Virus record (IMG/VR): IMGVR_UViG_3300019760_000006
Span: 1 to 64,000 of that record
Length of the DNA: 64,000 nt
Origin: a virus
Reading direction: 5' to 3' (one strand)
The translations under genes were made by a program, and so were the position numbers. Under the pieces are notes generated by a model, which searched no databases, was not told where the DNA came from, and was given only the letters and a program-made list of their open reading frames with translations. Shown here piece by piece: positions 1-52,850 of the stretch (its first letter is position 1; the number at the start of each line of letters is the position of its first letter).

Positions 1-672
1 GATGGAACTTTTCATGATAATAATGCATTAAATTATTCTGTTGTTGCTGGAAGGGAGATCAATAGGGATGATGGGAAGAACATAACGTACGCCTGTCTGT
101 ATGGAGCACAATCTAAAAAGATATCAGTGATGACGAGTGTGTCTGAAAGTAGAGGACAAAAGATAATTGATGCCCTTTGGCAGAACAACCCAGGATTATT
201 AGCTGTTAAAGAGAATATAGAAAAGTATTGGGAGAGGACAGGTAAGAAGTATGTTATGGGTTTAGATGGTAGAAAAGTTTACACAAGAAGTAAGCATTCT
301 CTCATGAACAGCCTATTTCAACATGCAGGCGCTCTTATATTGGATTTTGCACAGTGTTTTGTGGCTAATAAAATACAAGAAGAAGGACTGGATGTTCAGA
401 GGTGGGGGGAGTTCCATGACGAGAGTCAGTTTTATGAGAGTAACAAAGAAATTCAGATATTTACATTTGAAGAGAAACCGGAACAAATTAGGGACAATCT
501 CAGATACTCAAAACCTAAGTTAGATGAAGTATCTAATATGTGGGTTCAGTATTACGCCCCTGTCGGTCACTTATTAGATCAGGGGTTTTTAGCTGCTGGA
601 AAATTCTTTAAAACAAACGTAGAGTTTAGAGCAGAGTATCTTTGTGGCCCCTCATGGAGAGAATGTCATTAG
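1..672 (+). CDS. polA: Family A DNA polymerase, C-terminal part (5' truncated by window)
   Basis: Frame 1 is open from base 1: DGTFH...RDDGKNITYACLYGA (motif B, RxxxKxxxYxxxYG), GLDGRK...NSLFQ, and HDE (motif C). Confidence 0.92.
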   Translation, partial: DGTFHDNNALNYSVVAGREINRDDGKNITYACLYGAQSKKISVMTSVSESRGQKIIDALWQNNPGLLAVKENIEKYWERTGKKYVMGLDGRKVYTRSKHSLMNSLFQHAGALILDFAQCFVANKIQEEGLDVQRWGEFHDESQFYESNKEIQIFTFEEKPEQIRDNLRYSKPKLDEVSNMWVQYYAPVGHLLDQGFLAAGKFFKTNVEFRAEYLCGPSWRECH

Positions 673-6205: not shown

Positions 6206-7721
6206 ATGAAAGAGATAAGCTTAAAAATAAATCTTATGATTACAGATCTTTTGGAAGAGAAGGAAAGAGCTTGTATATCCGGGAATCTTGATTGTGAAAC
6301 AGTATGTGAGACAACAATTGAGAATCTCCAAGATATACTTCATTGGATTGCACAAAAAATAGGGTATAAAAATGTACTTTACACAAAGGTTGAAACATAT
6401 AACAAGTACTTGGGAAATTGTGTATCAAGGGATGAACTACTATGATGCTGAATACATTTACAGTAACCTATTGAACACCTCTGTGAGGATTATTCATATT
6501 GATTTACAAGAAGATGGCAGCAAAATGATAGTTATTAAGGAGAAATAAATAAAATGTTATGTCAAGAAGTGAGAAAAGATATCCGGGACGCTGTTTATAT
6601 GGCAATGGATTTTATAGCAGATTGGCAAGGTGAGGATTATGTTGGCGGGATTTGCAAACGAGAAGATCTCAACATTAATTCACAAGCGGTTTTAGATTTT
6701 GTCTTTAAATGCCAACAAGAATATAATACTATAGAAAATAAATGGTGGTTGTAAAAGGGAGAGTAAAATGTCCTGCACAGTTAGCTATACATTTCCTTGC
6801 AAGGAGGAGTTTTCACCTAAACGGTGTGTGATAAAGCCTATTAGGGGAAGATGCTCTGCCTTCTTAACATTAATGCCAGCAACTCATTATATATTACTCC
6901 CATTTGCTAAAATTGGTTTATGTCTGCAAATGTCAAATGTTCCAGATACGTTATGGACGGTTACAGAAATTAAGGAGATTTAAAATGTCAAATGAATCAA
7001 TACCATTTTATTCTGAAACATTTGGAAAGCACATAACAATAGTTTACGGCTATTTACCAAGTGAGTCATGGATAGATAAAGGAAAATACTGTCAAATACC
7101 CGAATACTTTGAAATCCTTGCTATCCTGGATAGCAAAACAAATTCGGAAATCCTGATTGATGATGAGGACGCTTACATTCTCGATGATATAGAAAGAGAA
7201 TATAAACAGCATTGTGAATTAATAAAAGGAGAATATTAAAATGGGCAGAGAAAAAGGTTATAAACCAAGTATTAGGTCAATTAAAGAAAAAGGTGGATCG
7301 TTTTATATAGATTATGATGATAATTTAAATGGTCCTGGTGTTTTTGATACTGAATTTGGGTTTTGTTGGGCAACTTGCAATGTGGAAAATGTTTGCGAAG
7401 AATTAAACAAAGAACTAACAAAAGGAAAATATTAAAATGAAAAATAAAAACGATGATAAATTTATCAACCGATCAAATGAACGATCTGCAATTGAAAAAC
7501 GTATTGCAATCAAGCAGAAGAAACTTGACATTCTGCTTAAACATAACACGCTTAAACAACAACCTGAAATAAAGCGCCTAACACTTGAAATAAAAGAGTT
7601 AGAAGAAGAAAGAAGAGGGTTGTATCTGAAAAAAGAATCTACTTTTAAATCAAGTGAAAATGGGGTTGTAGAGGAGGTGCGTGTGAATAAAAAAACAATA
7701 AGAAGACGGAGACAAAAATAA
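6206..7721 (+). other. Small early hypothetical genes (6206-6445, 6554-6754, 6768-6983, 6985-7239, 7241-7435, 7437-7721)
   Basis: Tightly packed ORFs, most with a GGAG-type RBS and A-rich spacer. Confidence 0.7.
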
Positions 7722-11676: not shown

Positions 11677-12395
11677 ATGAAAACAACAATTACATTACAT
11701 GCGGATAGTAAAGAAGATAGAATTAAAGCTTTAGATTTTCTTGACAAGGAAGACATTACAGGGATGACATTTACATTTATCAGTAAGCGTGGTTTTGTTT
11801 GCTATTTTGATGATGGAAGGAGAGATACAAAAGAAGAAATTAGTTTTGAAATTGAGCAGCCTACTATCTACCATTGCCTTAATATCCAAGATGAAGATAC
11901 AAAGAAAATGTTGAACGAATTGATTAATAAAAAGCAACAGATTTATTTTAAAAATCACCCAAATATCCATTGGAAAAGGGGGATTTTAAAAAATGAAGAA
12001 GGAGGAGAGTAAATAAAATGAGTTATGAAAGTAGAATATATGTAGGTGTGGTTAGGAACGGAGATGATTATTTTAGTGAAATTGCAAAATTTCAGATTGG
12101 TAAAATAGATTATACAGGAGCTTTTCATAGACTTATTGGGATGTCAAAAGATGTAGATGATTTGTGTTTATATGCAGATGATGGGGATACTGAAATAACA
12201 ATAGACAAATATGGAGAGAAGTTAAAAGAACTACCTTTAGATGATGTTATAAAAGCTTTAGGAAAAGATAAAGAAAGATATAGACGAATCCCTCCTGTTA
12301 TTGAGTTTCTTAGAGTTATTAAAGTACAAAAAGAGTTTGGGGTGTGGGGGTATGAAGACGATGTTAATATAAAAGTGTTACATTTTGGTTATTAA
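11677..12395 (+). other. Two hypothetical genes (11677-12012, 12018-12395)
   Basis: ORFs preceded by the recurring AAATAAAATG start context. Confidence 0.7.
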
Positions 12396-12436
12396 TAAAT
12401 AACTGCCTAAAAACCTTATTTAAACTGTAGTAACAA

Positions 12437-12495
12437 ATAACAATAAAACACTTGATAACTCTTTATTATAGGAGTTGTTAGGTGTTTTGTTGTAT
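12437..12495 (+). terminator. Long hairpin / terminator
   Basis: ACAATAAAACACTTGATAACTCTT...AGGAGTTGTTAGGTGTTTTGTTGT stem with G-U pairs, directly after the gene block. Confidence 0.7.
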
Positions 12496-12859
12496 GTTGG
12501 TTTAAATAAAATTTAAATAAAAAAATCTTCTCAATATTAAACCATTATAAAAAGGCAAACAGTTATTGTGCGCGCTATGTATGTGTTTTCACAACTACAG
12601 GTTGTAGTTGATGAATAACAACATGTTTGTTTGCCTATATAATATAAACATTCATTATCCGAGCATATAAGTATTTGCGCACTATTATAGTTTGCTCGGA
12701 TAATATTATCTGACTTAGATAATATTATCTAAGAAAGCATTGATAAATAAAAGAAGATGAATATAAAATTTGGCCCCGACGAGGAGAGAACGTAGTGAAC
12801 GAGAATGAGGAGTGGGTTAGATCAATTTCATTATCTAAAAATTCAAACACTGTTTGAAA

Positions 12860-12875
12860 TGTTTCACGTGGAACA
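12860..12875. promoter_or_regulatory. parS: parS site (ParB-binding centromere sequence)
   Basis: TGTTTCACGTGGAACA; its reverse complement TGTTCCACGTGAAACA matches the canonical bacterial parS at 16/16; extra half-site CGTGGAACA at 12884-12892. Confidence 0.8.
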
Positions 12876-12942
12876 CGTGGGGACGTGGAACACGAATATA
12901 TGAACTATTGTTCATATTAAATTAATTTAAAATTTGTAAATG

Positions 12943-12978
12943 TTATTCACAATAACACTTGACAACAAATTATGCACA
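12943..12978 (+). promoter_or_regulatory. Two DnaA-box matches flanking a -35 hexamer
   Basis: TTATTCACA (12943-12951) and TTATGCACA (12970-12978) fit TTATNCACA; TTGACA at 12959-12964. Confidence 0.5.
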
Positions 12979-13414
12979 TGTTATTAATACACATAATCAA
13001 TTGAAACATTAACTACAATAAAGAAAGAAAAAGAAAAGGAGAATAAACAAATGGAAAAGAATGACCTTATTATCAAATACCAGTTGAAAATTGACCAGAT
13101 GGAGAGGAAAATTAAAGATACATATAAAACAGACATAGGGAGAGGTACTGCTTATTTCTTCATTAAAGAGTGGGAAGATTTTATTAAAGATTTGGAAAAG
13201 ATGGAGGATTAAGAAAACAAATGAGAACTTTTATATTAAGATCAATTCAAGTGATTTTAACACTAACGATAGGTATATCTGTAGCTTTACTGTTTAAACA
13301 TAAATTTGCAATCTTCCTGCCAGTTTTAGTTGGGAGTATTCTGTGGGTTATGTTAATCTTTGGTATAGATGAGTATATTTATTTTAACAGACAATAAGAG
13401 ATGGGAGTAAACAA

Positions 13415-42965: not shown

Positions 42966-43673
42966 ATGAGTGAAGATGAAAAAGAGTTTAGGGTTATTAA
43001 AGAGTTTCCTGATTATGAGATTAACAAAGAAGGTATTGTAAGAAGGGCGAGTGATAAATTTAAACCTAATATTAGAAGGAATGGTAGGGGGTTTAAGTCA
43101 GTATCTCTAAAAGGTTCTAATGGGTTTAGATCTGTATATATAAAAAGACTCTTAGATTCTACGTTTAACAAACCAGAAGAAGATGATATTGTATCTTTAG
43201 ATGTAATAGGTTATCCAGAATATTCAGTAACATATGAAGGAAGAGTATGGAGTTACAGATCTAATAAGTTTATGGCACCGAGAAAAATAGGAAGAGGATA
43301 CTATGGTGTAAGTCTTGTAAATGAATTTGGTGATAAACATTTCTTAATTCATAGATTAATGGCTTTAACTTTCATACCTAATCCAGAAGACAAACCAACA
43401 GTTAATCATATAGATGGTGACAAAACAAATAACTGTATTGTAAATTTAGAGTGGGCAACATATGAAGAAAATAATAAACACGCTATATATAATAATTTAA
43501 GAGATAAAATTTTGGACACAGATAAAGTTCATGAGATATGTAAATATCTACAAGACAATGTAGGTTGTTTTGTAAAAGATGTTTGTAAAAAATTTGACGC
43601 TTCTTGGGATCAGGTTGGTGATATAAGAAAAAGAGTGACTTGGACTGAGATATCTAAAAATTATATATGGTAA
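42966..43673 (+). CDS. NUMOD4-HNH homing endonuclease (free-standing)
   Basis: Two NUMOD4-like repeats (FPDYEINKEG, YPEYSVTYEGRV) plus HRL...VNHIDGDKTNN...NLEW; own TTGACA at 42896. Confidence 0.9.
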   Translation: MSEDEKEFRVIKEFPDYEINKEGIVRRASDKFKPNIRRNGRGFKSVSLKGSNGFRSVYIKRLLDSTFNKPEEDDIVSLDVIGYPEYSVTYEGRVWSYRSNKFMAPRKIGRGYYGVSLVNEFGDKHFLIHRLMALTFIPNPEDKPTVNHIDGDKTNNCIVNLEWATYEENNKHAIYNNLRDKILDTDKVHEICKYLQDNVGCFVKDVCKKFDASWDQVGDIRKRVTWTEISKNYIW

Positions 43674-43689
43674 TAGGAGGTGATCTAAA

Positions 43690-45189
43690 ATAAGTAATGA
43701 AGAAACTCATCAGCTTGGGCCTTGTAGTAAAAAGCAAGAGATGATTTTAAACAATGATTCTACCCTTCTAATATGCGGAGGTGCGGCGGGATCGGGTAAA
43801 AGTTATCTCTTGCTACTGATGATTTTGAAGTACGTTGATTGTCCAAATTGGCGTGGTGTCATTTTCAGGAGATCGTATACAGAAATTGAATCTGGTGGAG
43901 GCTTGCTTGATGAGGCATCTGCAATGTATTTTGGCCTCCCCAAAAAATATAGGCCGACACTAAATAGATCAAGGGTTTGTTTTACATTCCCCTCTGGAGC
44001 GCAACTCCAGCTTGCGTCGATGCAGCATCACCCTAAAGATACTCTTAAGCAATCTGGTTCGCAATTTAGTTTTATCGGGTTCGACGAACTTTTTACGTTC
44101 GAAGAACAGCAATTCGTTTTTCTCTTTTCCCGCCTTAGATCAAGATCAAAATATCCAGGGAGGGTAGTTTGCACTACAAACCCTTATGGTGATACATTTA
44201 TCCTGAAATACGTCATAGATAATCTTGATGAGGGCGGTTTCCCTATTAAATCGCTTGATGGTAAGAAAAGATATTTTATTCGTAGAGGTGAGGATGTAAC
44301 ATTTGCCGATACTGAAGAAGAACTTAAAGAAAAGTTTGGTGATAAAGTAATGCCAATATCTTTTTCTTTTATATCGGCTAATTGTTATGATAACACTTAC
44401 CTAATGGAAAATCAACCTGAGTATGTGGCCCACCTGGAGTCACTAAAAGATGTAGATAGGGATAGACTTTTACACGGTTGTTGGTTTGCGAAAGAGAAAG
44501 CCGCTAAATATTTTGATAGAGACTGGCTCAATAAATTAGATGAAGTCCCAAGAGGTAGTACTTGTTGTAGAGGTTGGGACCGTGCATCCTCGCCGCCTTC
44601 GGAAAAAGAATTACATCCAGATTTTACAGCCTGTTGTAAGGTTTGGAGGACTCGTAATGGTGATTTTATAATCACAGGCCAGCATAGTAAAAACAATTAT
44701 GATGATGTAACTAATACTTACGGTAGGTTTAGAAAGACTCCTGGTGAAAGAGAGAATATAATTCTTGAACAAGCTATAAGTGATGGAGAATCTTGCACTA
44801 TAGTTTTGAGTGAAGATCCTGGTAGCGCAGGAAAATTTGAGTATAAGGAAAGTGCAAAGGTATTAATGTCTGAGGGTTTTCTTGTTAAAAGAGACCCTGC
44901 TTGTCCTACAGCAAGTAAACTAAAGAGGTTTGAACCGTTTTCTATTGCTTGTCAGAATGGTTTAGTAAGCATAGTTGAGAGTACATTTGACAGAAAAACT
45001 CTTGATGCCTACTATAAGGAGCTTGAAGATTTTGATGGTGAGCGTTCTTCAAGAACACGTAAAGATGATCAAGCCGATGCTACAGCTACAGCCTTTAACT
45101 ACATTTCCCAAAAGAAAAACATCCCGATAGTTTGTAGAAATCAACAAAATTTAAAGACAATGTCTAATAGTCTTCTAAATACTCTTTAA
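43690..45189 (+). CDS. terL: Terminase large subunit
   Basis: GPCSKKQ, GGAAGSGKS, FIGFDE, TTNP, GWD nuclease start, DDQADA; frame open from ATA 43690 behind GGAGGTGA. Confidence 0.95.
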   Translation: MSNEETHQLGPCSKKQEMILNNDSTLLICGGAAGSGKSYLLLLMILKYVDCPNWRGVIFRRSYTEIESGGGLLDEASAMYFGLPKKYRPTLNRSRVCFTFPSGAQLQLASMQHHPKDTLKQSGSQFSFIGFDELFTFEEQQFVFLFSRLRSRSKYPGRVVCTTNPYGDTFILKYVIDNLDEGGFPIKSLDGKKRYFIRRGEDVTFADTEEELKEKFGDKVMPISFSFISANCYDNTYLMENQPEYVAHLESLKDVDRDRLLHGCWFAKEKAAKYFDRDWLNKLDEVPRGSTCCRGWDRASSPPSEKELHPDFTACCKVWRTRNGDFIITGQHSKNNYDDVTNTYGRFRKTPGERENIILEQAISDGESCTIVLSEDPGSAGKFEYKESAKVLMSEGFLVKRDPACPTASKLKRFEPFSIACQNGLVSIVESTFDRKTLDAYYKELEDFDGERSSRTRKDDQADATATAFNYISQKKNIPIVCRNQQNLKTMSNSLLNTL

Positions 45190-45918: not shown

Positions 45919-47556
45919 ATGCGTGAGATTTTCGTTGACTACGAATATGGAGACGATCTGAATCCAGGGACGTTCGCCGCGCCGTATAAACACGACCGGG
46001 GCATGTCCGGATGGTATGGTGGTGGAGTGGCTTACAATCCTGGTGACATCATCCGTTTTAAACGAGGTGTTGTGTGGCCGAAAGCCACAGGCACCAGTTT
46101 TGAAGGGACTTCAAGCGACCCAATAACATATACCGATTACGGTGACGCTGAAGAGCCCGCGACGCTTCAGCCTTCGGACTATTTGACCGGATGGTCCTTA
46201 CATGCAGCCGGTATTTATGTTGCTGATCTCGCTTCTCTTGTTGCGTCTTTTATCGTTCTTGACAATGAGATTCCTCTACCTTCAGTTTCTTCGATTGCTG
46301 AAATTACCGAAAATTCCTTCTTCTACGATTCCGGCGCTCAAAAACTATACGTAGGGGTTGACGGTGATATCGCAGACCACACTATCTCTGCACCTCACAC
46401 CGTGCATTGTTTCGCCGTGTCAAAAGCGTACATCCATGTTTACGGCCTGCGTGTAAGGCACGGATACGACACTCAAACGGGTGGTATAAAATTGTATGCC
46501 GGGGTGACTGAGAAAGTCGGATGTATCGTTGAAGAGTGTGAATCCGTGGCGTGTGGTACCGGGATTTATAACTATAATACAGATGCTACCATCAGGAAAA
46601 ATACTGCCCGGAATTGTTGGAATGGGCAGCAATATCCCGCCGGTGCAGGGTTTGGATTAATTACTGGGCGTGGTGGTGTTTTCGCAGACAATATTATTGA
46701 GGGATGCTACACGGGTGTCGGAACAACAACCGGTAATATCGGTGGAATTTTCACGAATAACAAGATTTTGGATTCCATAGTCAACTCCGTGGGGTATCTG
46801 TACGGAACAGCAGCAGGCCCGTGTAAAGTGTTTGGGAATTACATCCGACACAGCCCTGCTGCCGCTGTGGGTCATGGCCTGTGCGCCACAGCTACCGCTG
46901 GAAATTACGTCACTGCTAAAAATAACATCGTTGAGATTCCGACTGGCACTATCAATCATGTAAATATCAATTGCATTTATTTGAGGGATGGTTCGGATTA
47001 TACGGGCATAGATTTCGACAGCAATGATTATTTCGTGGCCGATGGCCTATCTTGTAAGATTGGTAGATTATGGGAGTCCGAAGCCGTTCCGGTTGTTGAT
47101 TACGACACGTTAAATGCTTTTAGAGATGTGACGGGAACAGACGCAAAATCAATTAGCGCTGATCCGCAGCTTGATACAGCTGGCAGACCGGCCACGAATT
47201 CCCCAATCGTAGGAGCCGGTCAGGTAATCCCGGGCATCCACGACCAGTCTACTCCGGCCACGGATATCGACGGCAAGCCCATCCTATTCATACCAAATAT
47301 GGGGCCTTATGATGACCGGGTGTCCAAAACTATCACCGAAGCCAACTATGCGCCCACTGGCTACTCAGTTCGGGCCGGTGCCACGCTAACGCTCAAGGGC
47401 GGCGGTGATGTTGATCTCTCAGGGATTACTGACACCGGGGAAATCATATGTAAGCTGGTAGGGGATATCAATTCGTTCGTACCGAATGGGGATGATACAA
47501 AGCTATCTTCTATGAAAAAAAAGAAAATATATAATTTAAATGAAAGGAGTTTGTAA
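45919..47556 (+). CDS. Right-handed beta-helix (pectin-lyase-like) protein on a GC-rich segment
   Basis: FVD...GDD.NPGT...PYK, PGD.I.FKRG..W N-cap; Asn/Gly-rich coils; ADPQL...SP.VGAG...DIDG...P.MGPY end; GC clearly above flanks. Confidence 0.8.
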   Translation: MREIFVDYEYGDDLNPGTFAAPYKHDRGMSGWYGGGVAYNPGDIIRFKRGVVWPKATGTSFEGTSSDPITYTDYGDAEEPATLQPSDYLTGWSLHAAGIYVADLASLVASFIVLDNEIPLPSVSSIAEITENSFFYDSGAQKLYVGVDGDIADHTISAPHTVHCFAVSKAYIHVYGLRVRHGYDTQTGGIKLYAGVTEKVGCIVEECESVACGTGIYNYNTDATIRKNTARNCWNGQQYPAGAGFGLITGRGGVFADNIIEGCYTGVGTTTGNIGGIFTNNKILDSIVNSVGYLYGTAAGPCKVFGNYIRHSPAAAVGHGLCATATAGNYVTAKNNIVEIPTGTINHVNINCIYLRDGSDYTGIDFDSNDYFVADGLSCKIGRLWESEAVPVVDYDTLNAFRDVTGTDAKSISADPQLDTAGRPATNSPIVGAGQVIPGIHDQSTPATDIDGKPILFIPNMGPYDDRVSKTITEANYAPTGYSVRAGATLTLKGGGDVDLSGITDTGEIICKLVGDINSFVPNGDDTKLSSMKKKKIYNLNERSL

Positions 47557-50435: not shown

Positions 50436-51246
50436 TCTTGATAAAATAAAAACCCCTAAAAAGAAACCAAAAAAGATTAAAAGGTATTTGAAGGATATTG
50501 ATCTTGATCATATTGCTATGACAAGTGGTATGGGGGCTGCAAGTGAAATGAATGAACCATTTATTCTTAAGTCTGTTGAAAAATCAAGTAAAGATGAAAA
50601 TACTTATACAGAAGAAGAGACAGGTATTCTTAAAGAACTTGGGGAATGGAAAGAAGAGTATATAACTATTAAATCTGTTAGTAAAACTACAGATATTCTA
50701 AATGAAGCTGAAGAAAATCCAAATATAAAAGAAGAACAAAAGGAGAAAGAAACAACAATGTCTAAACAGAATGATGGTGTGGTAGAGACACCTGTTGTTA
50801 GTGTTGAGGAACTTGATGCACTACGGCAGGAAGTTATGAAGATGAAGAAAGAGAATGAGATTCTTAAATCTAATGAATTGATTAAGGATTTTATTTTTTC
50901 TAATGATGAAGATAAACAGAAAGAAATTAAAAAAGGTGTAGCTGAGATTATCTCTACTATTGAATTTGAGTCAAGAGAAATTCTTACAAAAGCTTTTAAT
51001 GCTGCTATCAAACATGTTTCAACAAAGGCTGTAGAAAAAGCTAAGTCTGAGGATAAGAAACCTGAAGAGAATACTTTGAAGAAGATGTTGGATGAAGAGG
51101 TTGGTAGTGAGGATGGTGAGGATAAAGATGCACTCCTGAAAGGTAATCCTGAAGGTAGGACAGAAGTTGATAAGTTTAACGAAGATTTCACTAAGTACTT
51201 TAATAAATCTAAAGGAATTAAAGAAGACAATCAGGAGGGGAAGTAA
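50428..51246 (+). CDS. Capsid scaffold protein
   Basis: Charged coiled-coil ORF between protease and capsid genes; GGAGG RBS. Confidence 0.7.
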   Translation: MNDLDKIKTPKKKPKKIKRYLKDIDLDHIAMTSGMGAASEMNEPFILKSVEKSSKDENTYTEEETGILKELGEWKEEYITIKSVSKTTDILNEAEENPNIKEEQKEKETTMSKQNDGVVETPVVSVEELDALRQEVMKMKKENEILKSNELIKDFIFSNDEDKQKEIKKGVAEIISTIEFESREILTKAFNAAIKHVSTKAVEKAKSEDKKPEENTLKKMLDEEVGSEDGEDKDALLKGNPEGRTEVDKFNEDFTKYFNKSKGIKEDNQEGK

Positions 51247-51252
51247 TATATA

Positions 51253-51735
51253 ATGCCTACAGTAACTAATAGTACAAAAAGACGACAGATTTCTGAACTA
51301 ATTAAAGGGTATGATAATTTTCAGTATGAGAAGGGTATTAACTTCTATTTTGCAACAGTTGATGTAAAAGGAACTGCTGCTATTGATCCAATTGGAACCC
51401 CTCTTGTATGGAATAATACAACCTCTGCTTTTGAGGTTTTTATAGCTCAAGATTTTAGTGCTATTGCTACATCACCACTTCCTGACAAATCACCTATCTG
51501 TCTTACTGTTGGTGATAATAGAGGTGTTGGTTTTAATGAAGCAGATACACAACTTATTGCAGATACAGCCACTAAAATGACAGTTATTTTTAGAGGTGAG
51601 GCTGGTGTGAGTGAAGCTGGATTGGATTGGGGAACTGCAAATGGAACCAATCAGGGGCTTTTTAAAAATAAACTTGAACAGCAGAAAATTGCAATTGTAG
51701 AGAGTGCCACTGAAGTCACTCCTTCTTTTATTTAA
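51253..51735 (+). CDS. Head decoration protein (lambda D-like position)
   Basis: 160-aa beta-rich ORF directly upstream of the major capsid gene. Confidence 0.65.
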   Translation: MPTVTNSTKRRQISELIKGYDNFQYEKGINFYFATVDVKGTAAIDPIGTPLVWNNTTSAFEVFIAQDFSAIATSPLPDKSPICLTVGDNRGVGFNEADTQLIADTATKMTVIFRGEAGVSEAGLDWGTANGTNQGLFKNKLEQQKIAIVESATEVTPSFI

Positions 51736-51758
51736 TGAGAGGTGAAATAAAATAATAT

Positions 51759-52850
51759 ATGAAAATTAATCAGACAGAAATCAGTTATGATGTAAAGAAA
51801 CAGGCTCAGGTAACTTCACAAGGAAACCCTTGGCTATTCCACGATAGAACAGATCTTCTCCAGAATTTTCAGGTAAAGCCGGGAATTTTTACTGCTTTGT
51901 TCGGTGGATCTTTTACTACAGACAACCTTAAAACTCATACTTATGAATTTGATCGTACATTTGAGACACTGGCGATGCCAGGTGGTAAACGTTATGATGA
52001 GATTGGTAAGGATCTGAAGAAAGATCAGCACGATATGAAATACTATGGTGTACCTTCTTTTGGTCTTAGATATAATGTCATGGCACAGGATTGGATGGAC
52101 AGACGACAGCCTGGCACTATGGAGCTTATGAATGAGGCTTATGTTGAAAGTCAGATGGCTCTAAAAGCTGAAAGAGCTTGGGGTTTGTTTACAGAGTATG
52201 GTATTGCCTCTCTCCTTCTGACTGATCAGAATATCATCCTTGATGGACCTTATACACAGTATAATTATTACACAGATCTTATTGGTGGTGCTCGTCCTGC
52301 TAAAGTTGATATGAAACTTGATGAGAATGTAAATCATGAAGATCTTATGAATGCTGAAGTTGATAATATTACTCAGAAAATTATGAAAGCGGGAATGTCT
52401 GCTGGAATGATGGTTTGTCTTTGTGGAACTACTTACTTTAATCAGAGGTTGGAGATTGAAAAGCTTACAACTCTAAACCGTGAAATCAGAAATCGTCTTG
52501 ATCTTGCATCAATGCCTGTTCCTGAGTCTTCTTTTGGTACTGGTGATCTTCCCTATCGGAACTTTGAAGGTATGCTTGATGGTGTTCTTTACATTCATAT
52601 TGGTAATGAAATTCTTACAGGTACAAAAGTAATTGCTGACACTGATGCATACCTTATGCCAATGGGTCTTAGTGGTTGGCTTGCAAAAGCTTATGCTCCT
52701 GCTATTGATAGAGAGAATGTGAATAAAGAGGCTCGCGATATGTATATGTGGAGTTATGAAGATAGGTTTGGTCTTAACACTTATTTTGAAAGTAATGTGC
52801 TCTTCGCTAATCGCAGACCAGAATTTATCACTCATTTGAAGAATACGTAA
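51759..52850 (+). CDS. Major capsid protein (HK97 fold, lambda E-like)
   Basis: 363 aa; AYAPA...VN...Y...ESN.L....RPE C-terminus; position; downstream terminator. Confidence 0.88.
   Translation: MKINQTEISYDVKKQAQVTSQGNPWLFHDRTDLLQNFQVKPGIFTALFGGSFTTDNLKTHTYEFDRTFETLAMPGGKRYDEIGKDLKKDQHDMKYYGVPSFGLRYNVMAQDWMDRRQPGTMELMNEAYVESQMALKAERAWGLFTEYGIASLLLTDQNIILDGPYTQYNYYTDLIGGARPAKVDMKLDENVNHEDLMNAEVDNITQKIMKAGMSAGMMVCLCGTTYFNQRLEIEKLTTLNREIRNRLDLASMPVPESSFGTGDLPYRNFEGMLDGVLYIHIGNEILTGTKVIADTDAYLMPMGLSGWLAKAYAPAIDRENVNKEARDMYMWSYEDRFGLNTYFESNVLFANRRPEFITHLKNT

Follow-up and report, generated by a model that had tools for sequence, protein, structure and literature searches.

Why should a phage that encodes no partition proteins of its own carry an exact copy of a bacterial chromosomal centromere? 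ParB-parS is usually seen as a device for the maintenance of chromosomes and plasmids, and the question is whether such a site on a phage genome is real, who reads it and to what end. Positions given here are those of the window, the 64,000-nt stretch (1 to 64,000) of the 92,760-bp record IMGVR_UViG_3300019760_000006 that was analysed, unless the record is named. At 12860-12875 lies the 16-bp palindrome TGTTTCACGTGGAACA, the reverse complement of which, TGTTCCACGTGAAACA, is the classic chromosomal parS of Bacillus subtilis. An earlier note on this DNA had called the site a 16/16 match to canonical parS that was very unlikely to be due to chance, and both statements hold. The palindrome fits TGTTNCACGTGNAACA at all 14 fixed positions, and its two variable positions, T at 5 and G at 12, obey the rule of natural parS (Y5/R12: the former a pyrimidine, the latter a purine). 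A first-order Markov model of the 32% GC genome predicts 1.7e-4 such sites per whole genome. The match to TGTTNCACGTGNAACA is unique in the 92,760-bp record, and the search for further parS sites in the rest of the genome that the note had called for returned nothing else within 2 mismatches, the runner-up 16-mer having 3. The site is unchanged, with 0 differences, in contigs of four other microbial-mat runs and is therefore not an assembly artefact; since the populations sampled by these four runs are invariant, they are uninformative on selection.

The palindrome is followed by CGTGGGGA and then CGTGGAACACG, and the second half-site that the note had seen there proved to be a perfect arm. 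Two perfect 12-nt direct repeats ACGTGGAACACG lie on the plus strand at 12866-12877 and 12883-12894 (span 12866-12894), separated by the spacer TGGGG, with the right parS arm GTGGAACA complete at 12885-12892 within the second copy and a degenerate arm, GTGGGGA, between the two copies. The ACGTGG hexamer occurs 11 times in the genome, and 3 of these 11 fall inside the 26 bases of parS and repeat. The half-parS heptamer GTGGAAC (= GTTCCAC) is found at 12885-12891, adjoining the full site. Isolated GTTCCAC and GTTTCAC arms are bound in vivo by Pseudomonas aeruginosa ParB, whose distribution over full and half sites changes as growth proceeds from phase to phase (PMC10419367). The half-parS repeat, together with the cluster of operator-like palindromes described below, is particular to this phage. 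We know of no flanking direct repeat as a normal feature of chromosomal parS, and we count this against a reading of the site by host ParB.

The absence of a visible parA or parB could be extended to the whole genome. Profile searches of all six frames of the whole record for ParB_N (PF02195), TIGR00180, HTH_ParB (PF17762) and the ParA-type AAA_31 (PF13614) gave no match, and the same searches gave matches in control genomes. The replicon has neither the cognate ParB nor the ParA-type Walker ATPase of a self-contained ParABS system, and the phage-encoded ParAB that the note had named among the findings that would overturn its reading did not turn up in this practically complete record. CheckV puts completeness at 71%, an estimate that is too low because the gene for the family A DNA polymerase (PolA) spans the record ends with only about 20-25 codons missing. 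This gene is split between record positions 90911-92760 at the right end, where a 616-codon open frame runs off the record, and window positions 1-672 at the left end, which opens inside a frame with a PolA match; in an alignment with the phage M1 polymerase (698 residues), the right end covers residues 1-473 and the left end residues 518-698. Judged from its ends, and unless a mobile element has inserted at the break, the record is an essentially complete genome that is circularly permuted and opened within polA.

The phage itself is uncultured, comes from microbial mats and has a genome of about 93 kb with 32% GC. It encodes a terminase, a portal, a major head protein, tail proteins, ribonucleotide reductase (RNR), ThyX and dUTPase, together with a T7-type primase-helicase, the family A polymerase and a tRNA-Ile(UAU), with Shine-Dalgarno sites at most genes. 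Neither an integrase (six frames) nor a plasmid-type replication gene was found in the genome. Its cultured relatives are distant (25-43% amino acid identity) and all infect Gammaproteobacteria: Pseudomonas phage M1, Pseudaeromonas phage KLEP7, Acinetobacter phages Ab5/Phab24, Aeromonas phage PAc, Alteromonas phage PT11-V22 and Vibrio phages. GenBank phages gave no DNA match, near or distant, and IMG/VR gave no relative through the 257-aa or 409-aa neighbouring proteins or TerL; the extended pattern of the parS site was not found elsewhere, and the 257-aa protein matches only itself among 5.8 billion proteins. A host search by RNR in bacterial genomes returned only a match of 24% identity. Five distant cultured relatives lack an exact parS and have only chance-level matches with 1-2 mismatches, an absence that at 25-43% amino acid identity neither supports nor refutes a reading of the site as functional.

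We turn to viral contigs at large, where at least 119 contigs in IMG/VR match the 14 fixed parS bases. The two free positions served as an internal control. Among the matches listed, 94 of the 100 contigs with a single match have the Y5/R12 form, where composition predicts 24.8% (P = 2e-49), none of the 100 single sites is one of the equally palindromic A-T or G-C variants, and, scaled from the six outside the rule, about 2 of the 94 sites that obey it would be due to chance. By this measure the sites in viral contigs follow the specificity of ParB and not that of palindromes in general, and the Y5/R12 excess, with no alternative palindromes, indicates that exact core matches are real parS. 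Again among the matches listed, a ParB_N match is present in only 5 of the 35 parS-bearing viral records of at least 30 kb (30 are without), and of the 17 parS-bearing records that are at least 90% complete, some of them bounded by direct terminal repeats, 14 have none. Five of the records without ParB_N, some with 2-3 sites, also lack TIGR00180, and many of the parS sites of these viral records are non-coding. On these counts the orphan host-type parS is recurrent in phages, and a search of the literature returned no survey of natural orphan parS in them.

Two of these records deserve description. A 77-kb record of 97% completeness (L065) has three exact parS in non-coding sequence at 6637-6894, two of which abut head to tail, and has neither a ParB_N nor a TIGR00180 match. 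An 86.5-kb phage of 30% GC (G051) has two exact parS 47 bp apart in a non-coding region of about 900 bp, at about 51230-52120 (L205 1200-2090), which also holds three extra TGTTTCAC arms, TGTATAC-type iterons and three TTAGCACTC/GAGTGCTAA inverted repeats; no ParB was found in this phage, and its TIGR00180 search was negative. The region looks like an origin- or centromere-like hub, and its parS architecture is, as far as the arrangement of motifs tells, in the same style as that of the phage described here, to which G051 is unrelated save for a gene of the P0002 family (see below). The phage described here thus shares with the other orphan parS phages an exact parS in a complete or nearly complete genome with no ParB, often in non-coding sequence, and differs from them in being unrelated and in having its own palindrome cluster and 12-nt direct repeat.

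The parS of our phage lies in a gene-free and apparently regulatory gap of 655 bp (12396-13050), flanked by two plus-strand gene blocks that are mostly without known function. A terminator-like hairpin on the plus strand (12443-12490) would close the upstream operon and is followed by a hairpin with a 12-bp stem (12654-12704). The 12-bp palindrome GATAATATTATC is then found in two copies 19 bp apart (12699-12730) and nowhere else in the genome; the pair lies just 5' of a promoter-like TTGATA-18-TAAAAT on the plus strand (12740-12769, by consensus match only) and resembles operators for a phage repressor. A transcript from this predicted promoter would cross parS, and a possible 20-codon frame with a Shine-Dalgarno site stops 2 nt short of it. 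Directly upstream of parS is a 17-bp palindrome or hairpin, TTCAAAC-ACT-GTTTGAA (12842-12858), and downstream of the repeat an AT-rich one, ATATGAAC-TATT-GTTCATAT (12898-12917). A second promoter-like sequence on the plus strand, TTGACA-17-TATTAA (12959-12987), stands ahead of the next gene block, which begins with the ORF at 13051. As promoter consensus matches are no commoner than in shuffled sequence, both promoter assignments are tentative. With regard to RNA elements in the gap, Rfam gave only sub-threshold microRNA noise, and a structured RNA was rejected as a candidate, the local fold (z = -3.2) being accounted for by the DNA palindromes.

The gap also holds two perfect copies of the DnaA-box consensus TTATNCACA, at 12943-12951 and 12970-12978, on the same strand and 27 bp apart; the pair lies 70-110 bp downstream of parS, with the second copy inside the spacer of TTGACA-17-TATTAA. 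We considered an oriC-like landing pad and rejected it: TTATNCACA occurs 9 times in the genome, where about as many (7.3) are expected, and no excess of DnaA boxes was seen near the parS sites of other phages.

The upstream gene that adjoins the gap (12018-12395, plus strand) encodes P0002, a protein of 125 aa that belongs to no Pfam or PHROG family. Its family comprises 975 clusters at 50% identity with M1, Y3, D63, Y65, R90, H122 and G124 invariant. The fold of P0002 is predicted with confidence (pLDDT 93) and has no convincing match in the PDB (best Z 5.6) and no recognisable DNA-binding fold. A P0002 homologue is found 216 bp from parS in an unrelated 8-kb contig, and a profile search revealed a complete phage of 64.6 kb in which parS and homologue are arranged likewise. 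In this group the homologues stand behind an exact parS (L163 3001-3348; L165 3001-3348), which is located 33 nt upstream of the operon's start codon within a leader block that is conserved between contigs (L163; L164 = L165 = L166). One further lineage, G051, has parS, 13.6 kb from its P0002-family gene. Within 3 kb, 40 of 44 P0002-family loci have no parS, and four metagenome loci of the family have none either. Allowing for the way in which it was found, the link between P0002 and parS has roughly p = 0.01 and is suggestive, not general.

We propose that the parS of this phage, kept in non-coding DNA of the early region, serves host ParB as a functional docking site and loads ParB clamps onto the phage DNA, with positioning or retention of the phage genome as the favoured benefit, a reading that we consider moderately probable from the sequence evidence. 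In the absence of a phage ParB, the site would be read by the chromosomal ParB of the host. After injection, a host ParB dimer would nucleate on the 16-bp palindrome, for which the adjoining GTGGAAC half-site would provide a second, weaker contact. ParB would then bind CTP, close into a clamp and slide onto the flanking phage DNA, resulting in a partition-type complex on the phage genome. This complex would tie the phage DNA to the ParB/ParA, and possibly the SMC, machinery of the host, so that phage genomes would be positioned or retained alongside the origin region of the host and would be inherited whenever lysis comes late. The process would be the non-sporulating counterpart of the Spo0J-dependent capture of phi29 into spores. 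We infer here that ParB binds, that its clamps load and that the phage gains from this; the sequence of the site, its uniqueness, the lack of phage ParA and ParB, the completeness of the genome and the recurrence of orphan parS are what we observed.

The suggestion in the earlier note that the phage borrows host ParB in cis consequently stands in part: the absence of ParA and ParB from the whole genome, the Y5/R12 positions, the half-parS, the recurrence in other phages and the case of phi29 all speak for it, and the binding itself is predicted. It can be added that ParB loads on the injected genome of an engineered lambda-parS phage within minutes (bioRxiv 10.1101/2025.11.03.685801). Several considerations count against the proposal. 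The site is set among operator-like palindromes and promoter-like sequences, surroundings that suit a regulatory role no less well than one in segregation. Nor is it obvious why a lytic-looking phage, one that has no integrase, should need partition. Canonical ParB is missing in about a third of bacteria, among which the host of this phage may be.

A precedent exists in the virulent Bacillus phage phi29, which has five parS sites bound by the host Spo0J/ParB (Meijer et al. 2005, as summarised within PMC2731898), and the binding of Spo0J to them helps to trap the phage genome in spores (same summary, PMC2731898); the principle of a phage-borne host parS is, by that summary, already published. 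To judge from it, phi29 shares with our phage a lytic type of life, the lack of a ParB of its own and a host chromosomal parS that would engage host ParB in cis, the last being read here from the sequence. The two differ in that phi29 has, in the same account, five parS sites as opposed to one full site and a half-site, and in that phi29 is a 19-kb protein-primed podovirus, whereas the phage described here is of about 93 kb with relatives that infect Gammaproteobacteria. Spo0A boxes are not enriched in our phage (TGTCGAA, 4 seen against about 11 expected), and we found no sign in it of a spore-forming host or of a coupling to sporulation of the phi29 type; spore entrapment is unlikely as the benefit here. 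With chromosomal parS/ParB-CTP complexes (consensus tGTTNCACGTGAAACa) our site shares the identical 16 bp, and its extra arm is the preferred half-parS GTTCCAC. In contrast to chromosomal parS, which forms an origin-proximal cluster, the phage site is single, is not near oriC and has no cognate ParB or ParA on the same replicon. Plasmid-prophages of the P1 ParAB-parS and N15 SopAB types likewise have a centromere-like site on a phage genome, but they encode their own ParA and ParB and have their own centromeres, whereas here there is no partition protein and the site is that of the host.

Our literature search found natural use of a host centromere by a phage only in phi29 and its relative Nf, for spore entrapment. 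This phage, together with the many complete phage genomes that have an exact parS and no ParB, suggests that the trick is widespread, and it would then extend to non-sporulating hosts. A single mutable 16-bp site offers a clean experimental handle on the positioning, inheritance and silencing of phage DNA, and its use by phages may throw some light on carrier states and on delays of lysis in natural communities.

Other explanations of the site divide into those that keep the binding of host ParB and those that do not. Among the former the main functional rival is control of the flanking promoters, in which host ParB binds but the selected function is transcriptional, ParB acting as a host-state-dependent repressor or roadblock for early promoters; the phage would read the growth or cell-cycle state of the host through ParB occupancy, as phi29 reads Spo0A. 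The promoter-proximal parS of L163 and L164 makes this plausible, and we rate it as unlikely overall while taking it seriously. The parS here stands between the promoter-like sequences at 12740-12769 and 12959-12987 and beside operator-like palindromes, in L163 and L164-166 an exact parS precedes the start codon of the operon by 33 nt in a conserved leader, and P. aeruginosa ParB dissociates from parS in stationary phase (PMC10419367) and represses the promoters that adjoin parS3 and parS4 (PMC5521831). Yet the promoter matches are no commoner than in shuffled sequence, and the parS of this phage lies outside the promoter spacers. A decoy function shares with our proposal the premise of binding: replicating copies of the phage parS would titrate host ParB-CTP away from the origin region, and the upset of host segregation, SMC loading or division would benefit the phage. 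One high-affinity site with a half-site on a multicopy replicon may in principle suffice for this, but the site is single, whereas arrays are found in phages that seem designed for titration or partition (for instance L065, L129, G051), and nothing here indicates an effect on the host, which leaves the decoy quite improbable.

Were ParB not to bind, the palindrome could be an operator for a phage-encoded DNA-binding protein other than ParB, its identity to parS being coincidental. The cluster of distinct palindromes around it, with GATAATATTATC present twice, and a 12-nt direct repeat like that of iterated operators would suit such a protein, and most neighbouring genes are without known function. 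It would, however, demand a coincidence over 16/16 positions of about 1e-4 per genome; the variable positions of the viral sites, among the matches listed, obey Y5/R12 and never form alternative palindromes; and no candidate binder was found, P0002 having no recognisable DNA-binding fold. This makes the operator improbable. That the site is a chance match, or the functionless remnant of a past recombination with host DNA, is very improbable. So many windows were scanned that some chance matches must exist, but 1.7e-4 are expected per genome and about 98% of such matches in viral contigs are not due to chance (among the matches listed); the location is non-coding with a duplicated arm adjoining, and the flanks are phage-like in composition and hold no fragment of a ParB gene. 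Least of all do we expect that a phage ParB or ParAB was missed and that the site serves ordinary plasmid-prophage partition. The 71% completeness given by CheckV would leave room for one, and a six-frame HMM screen can overlook very divergent proteins. Against this, the two halves of PolA nearly meet across the record ends, with only about 20-25 codons missing, which makes a hidden ParB very unlikely unless a mobile element has inserted at the break; the searches for four families were negative; whatever reads a canonical parS should itself be a canonical ParB, a protein that the models used detect easily; and neither an integrase nor a plasmid-type replication gene is present. The whole prospect is exceedingly remote.

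Our proposal of docking by host ParB admits a bolder extension, which we regard as doubtful: a widespread and as yet undescribed strategy by which many unrelated phages would place an orphan parS in early or regulatory DNA, where bound host ParB would report the growth or cell-cycle state of the host and control early transcription or retention, with the P0002 family as a partner. P0002 would be a candidate for this part because its gene adjoins parS both here and in an unrelated group of phages.

A few further observations concern the genome outside the parS region. Between the terminase and portal genes a 545-aa ORF (45919-47556), which has no Pfam or PHROG match, lies in a local island of 43% GC in a genome of 32%. 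Within 42966-45189 an HNH endonuclease gene stands directly upstream of the large terminase ORF, and the match of that ORF to the PHROG terminase profile starts only at profile position 161; either the large terminase gene is interrupted, perhaps, or its true start is a non-standard codon further upstream. The genome of Alteromonas phage vB_AmeM_PT11-V22 (MN877442.1) is also exactly 92,760 bp in length, which appears to be a coincidence as the identity of the major capsid proteins is only 27%. Finally, a gene for a Thg1-like tRNA-His guanylyltransferase (PF04446, E = 3e-26) is found at record positions 85266-85982 (L148 10266-10982), just upstream of the primase-helicase gene.
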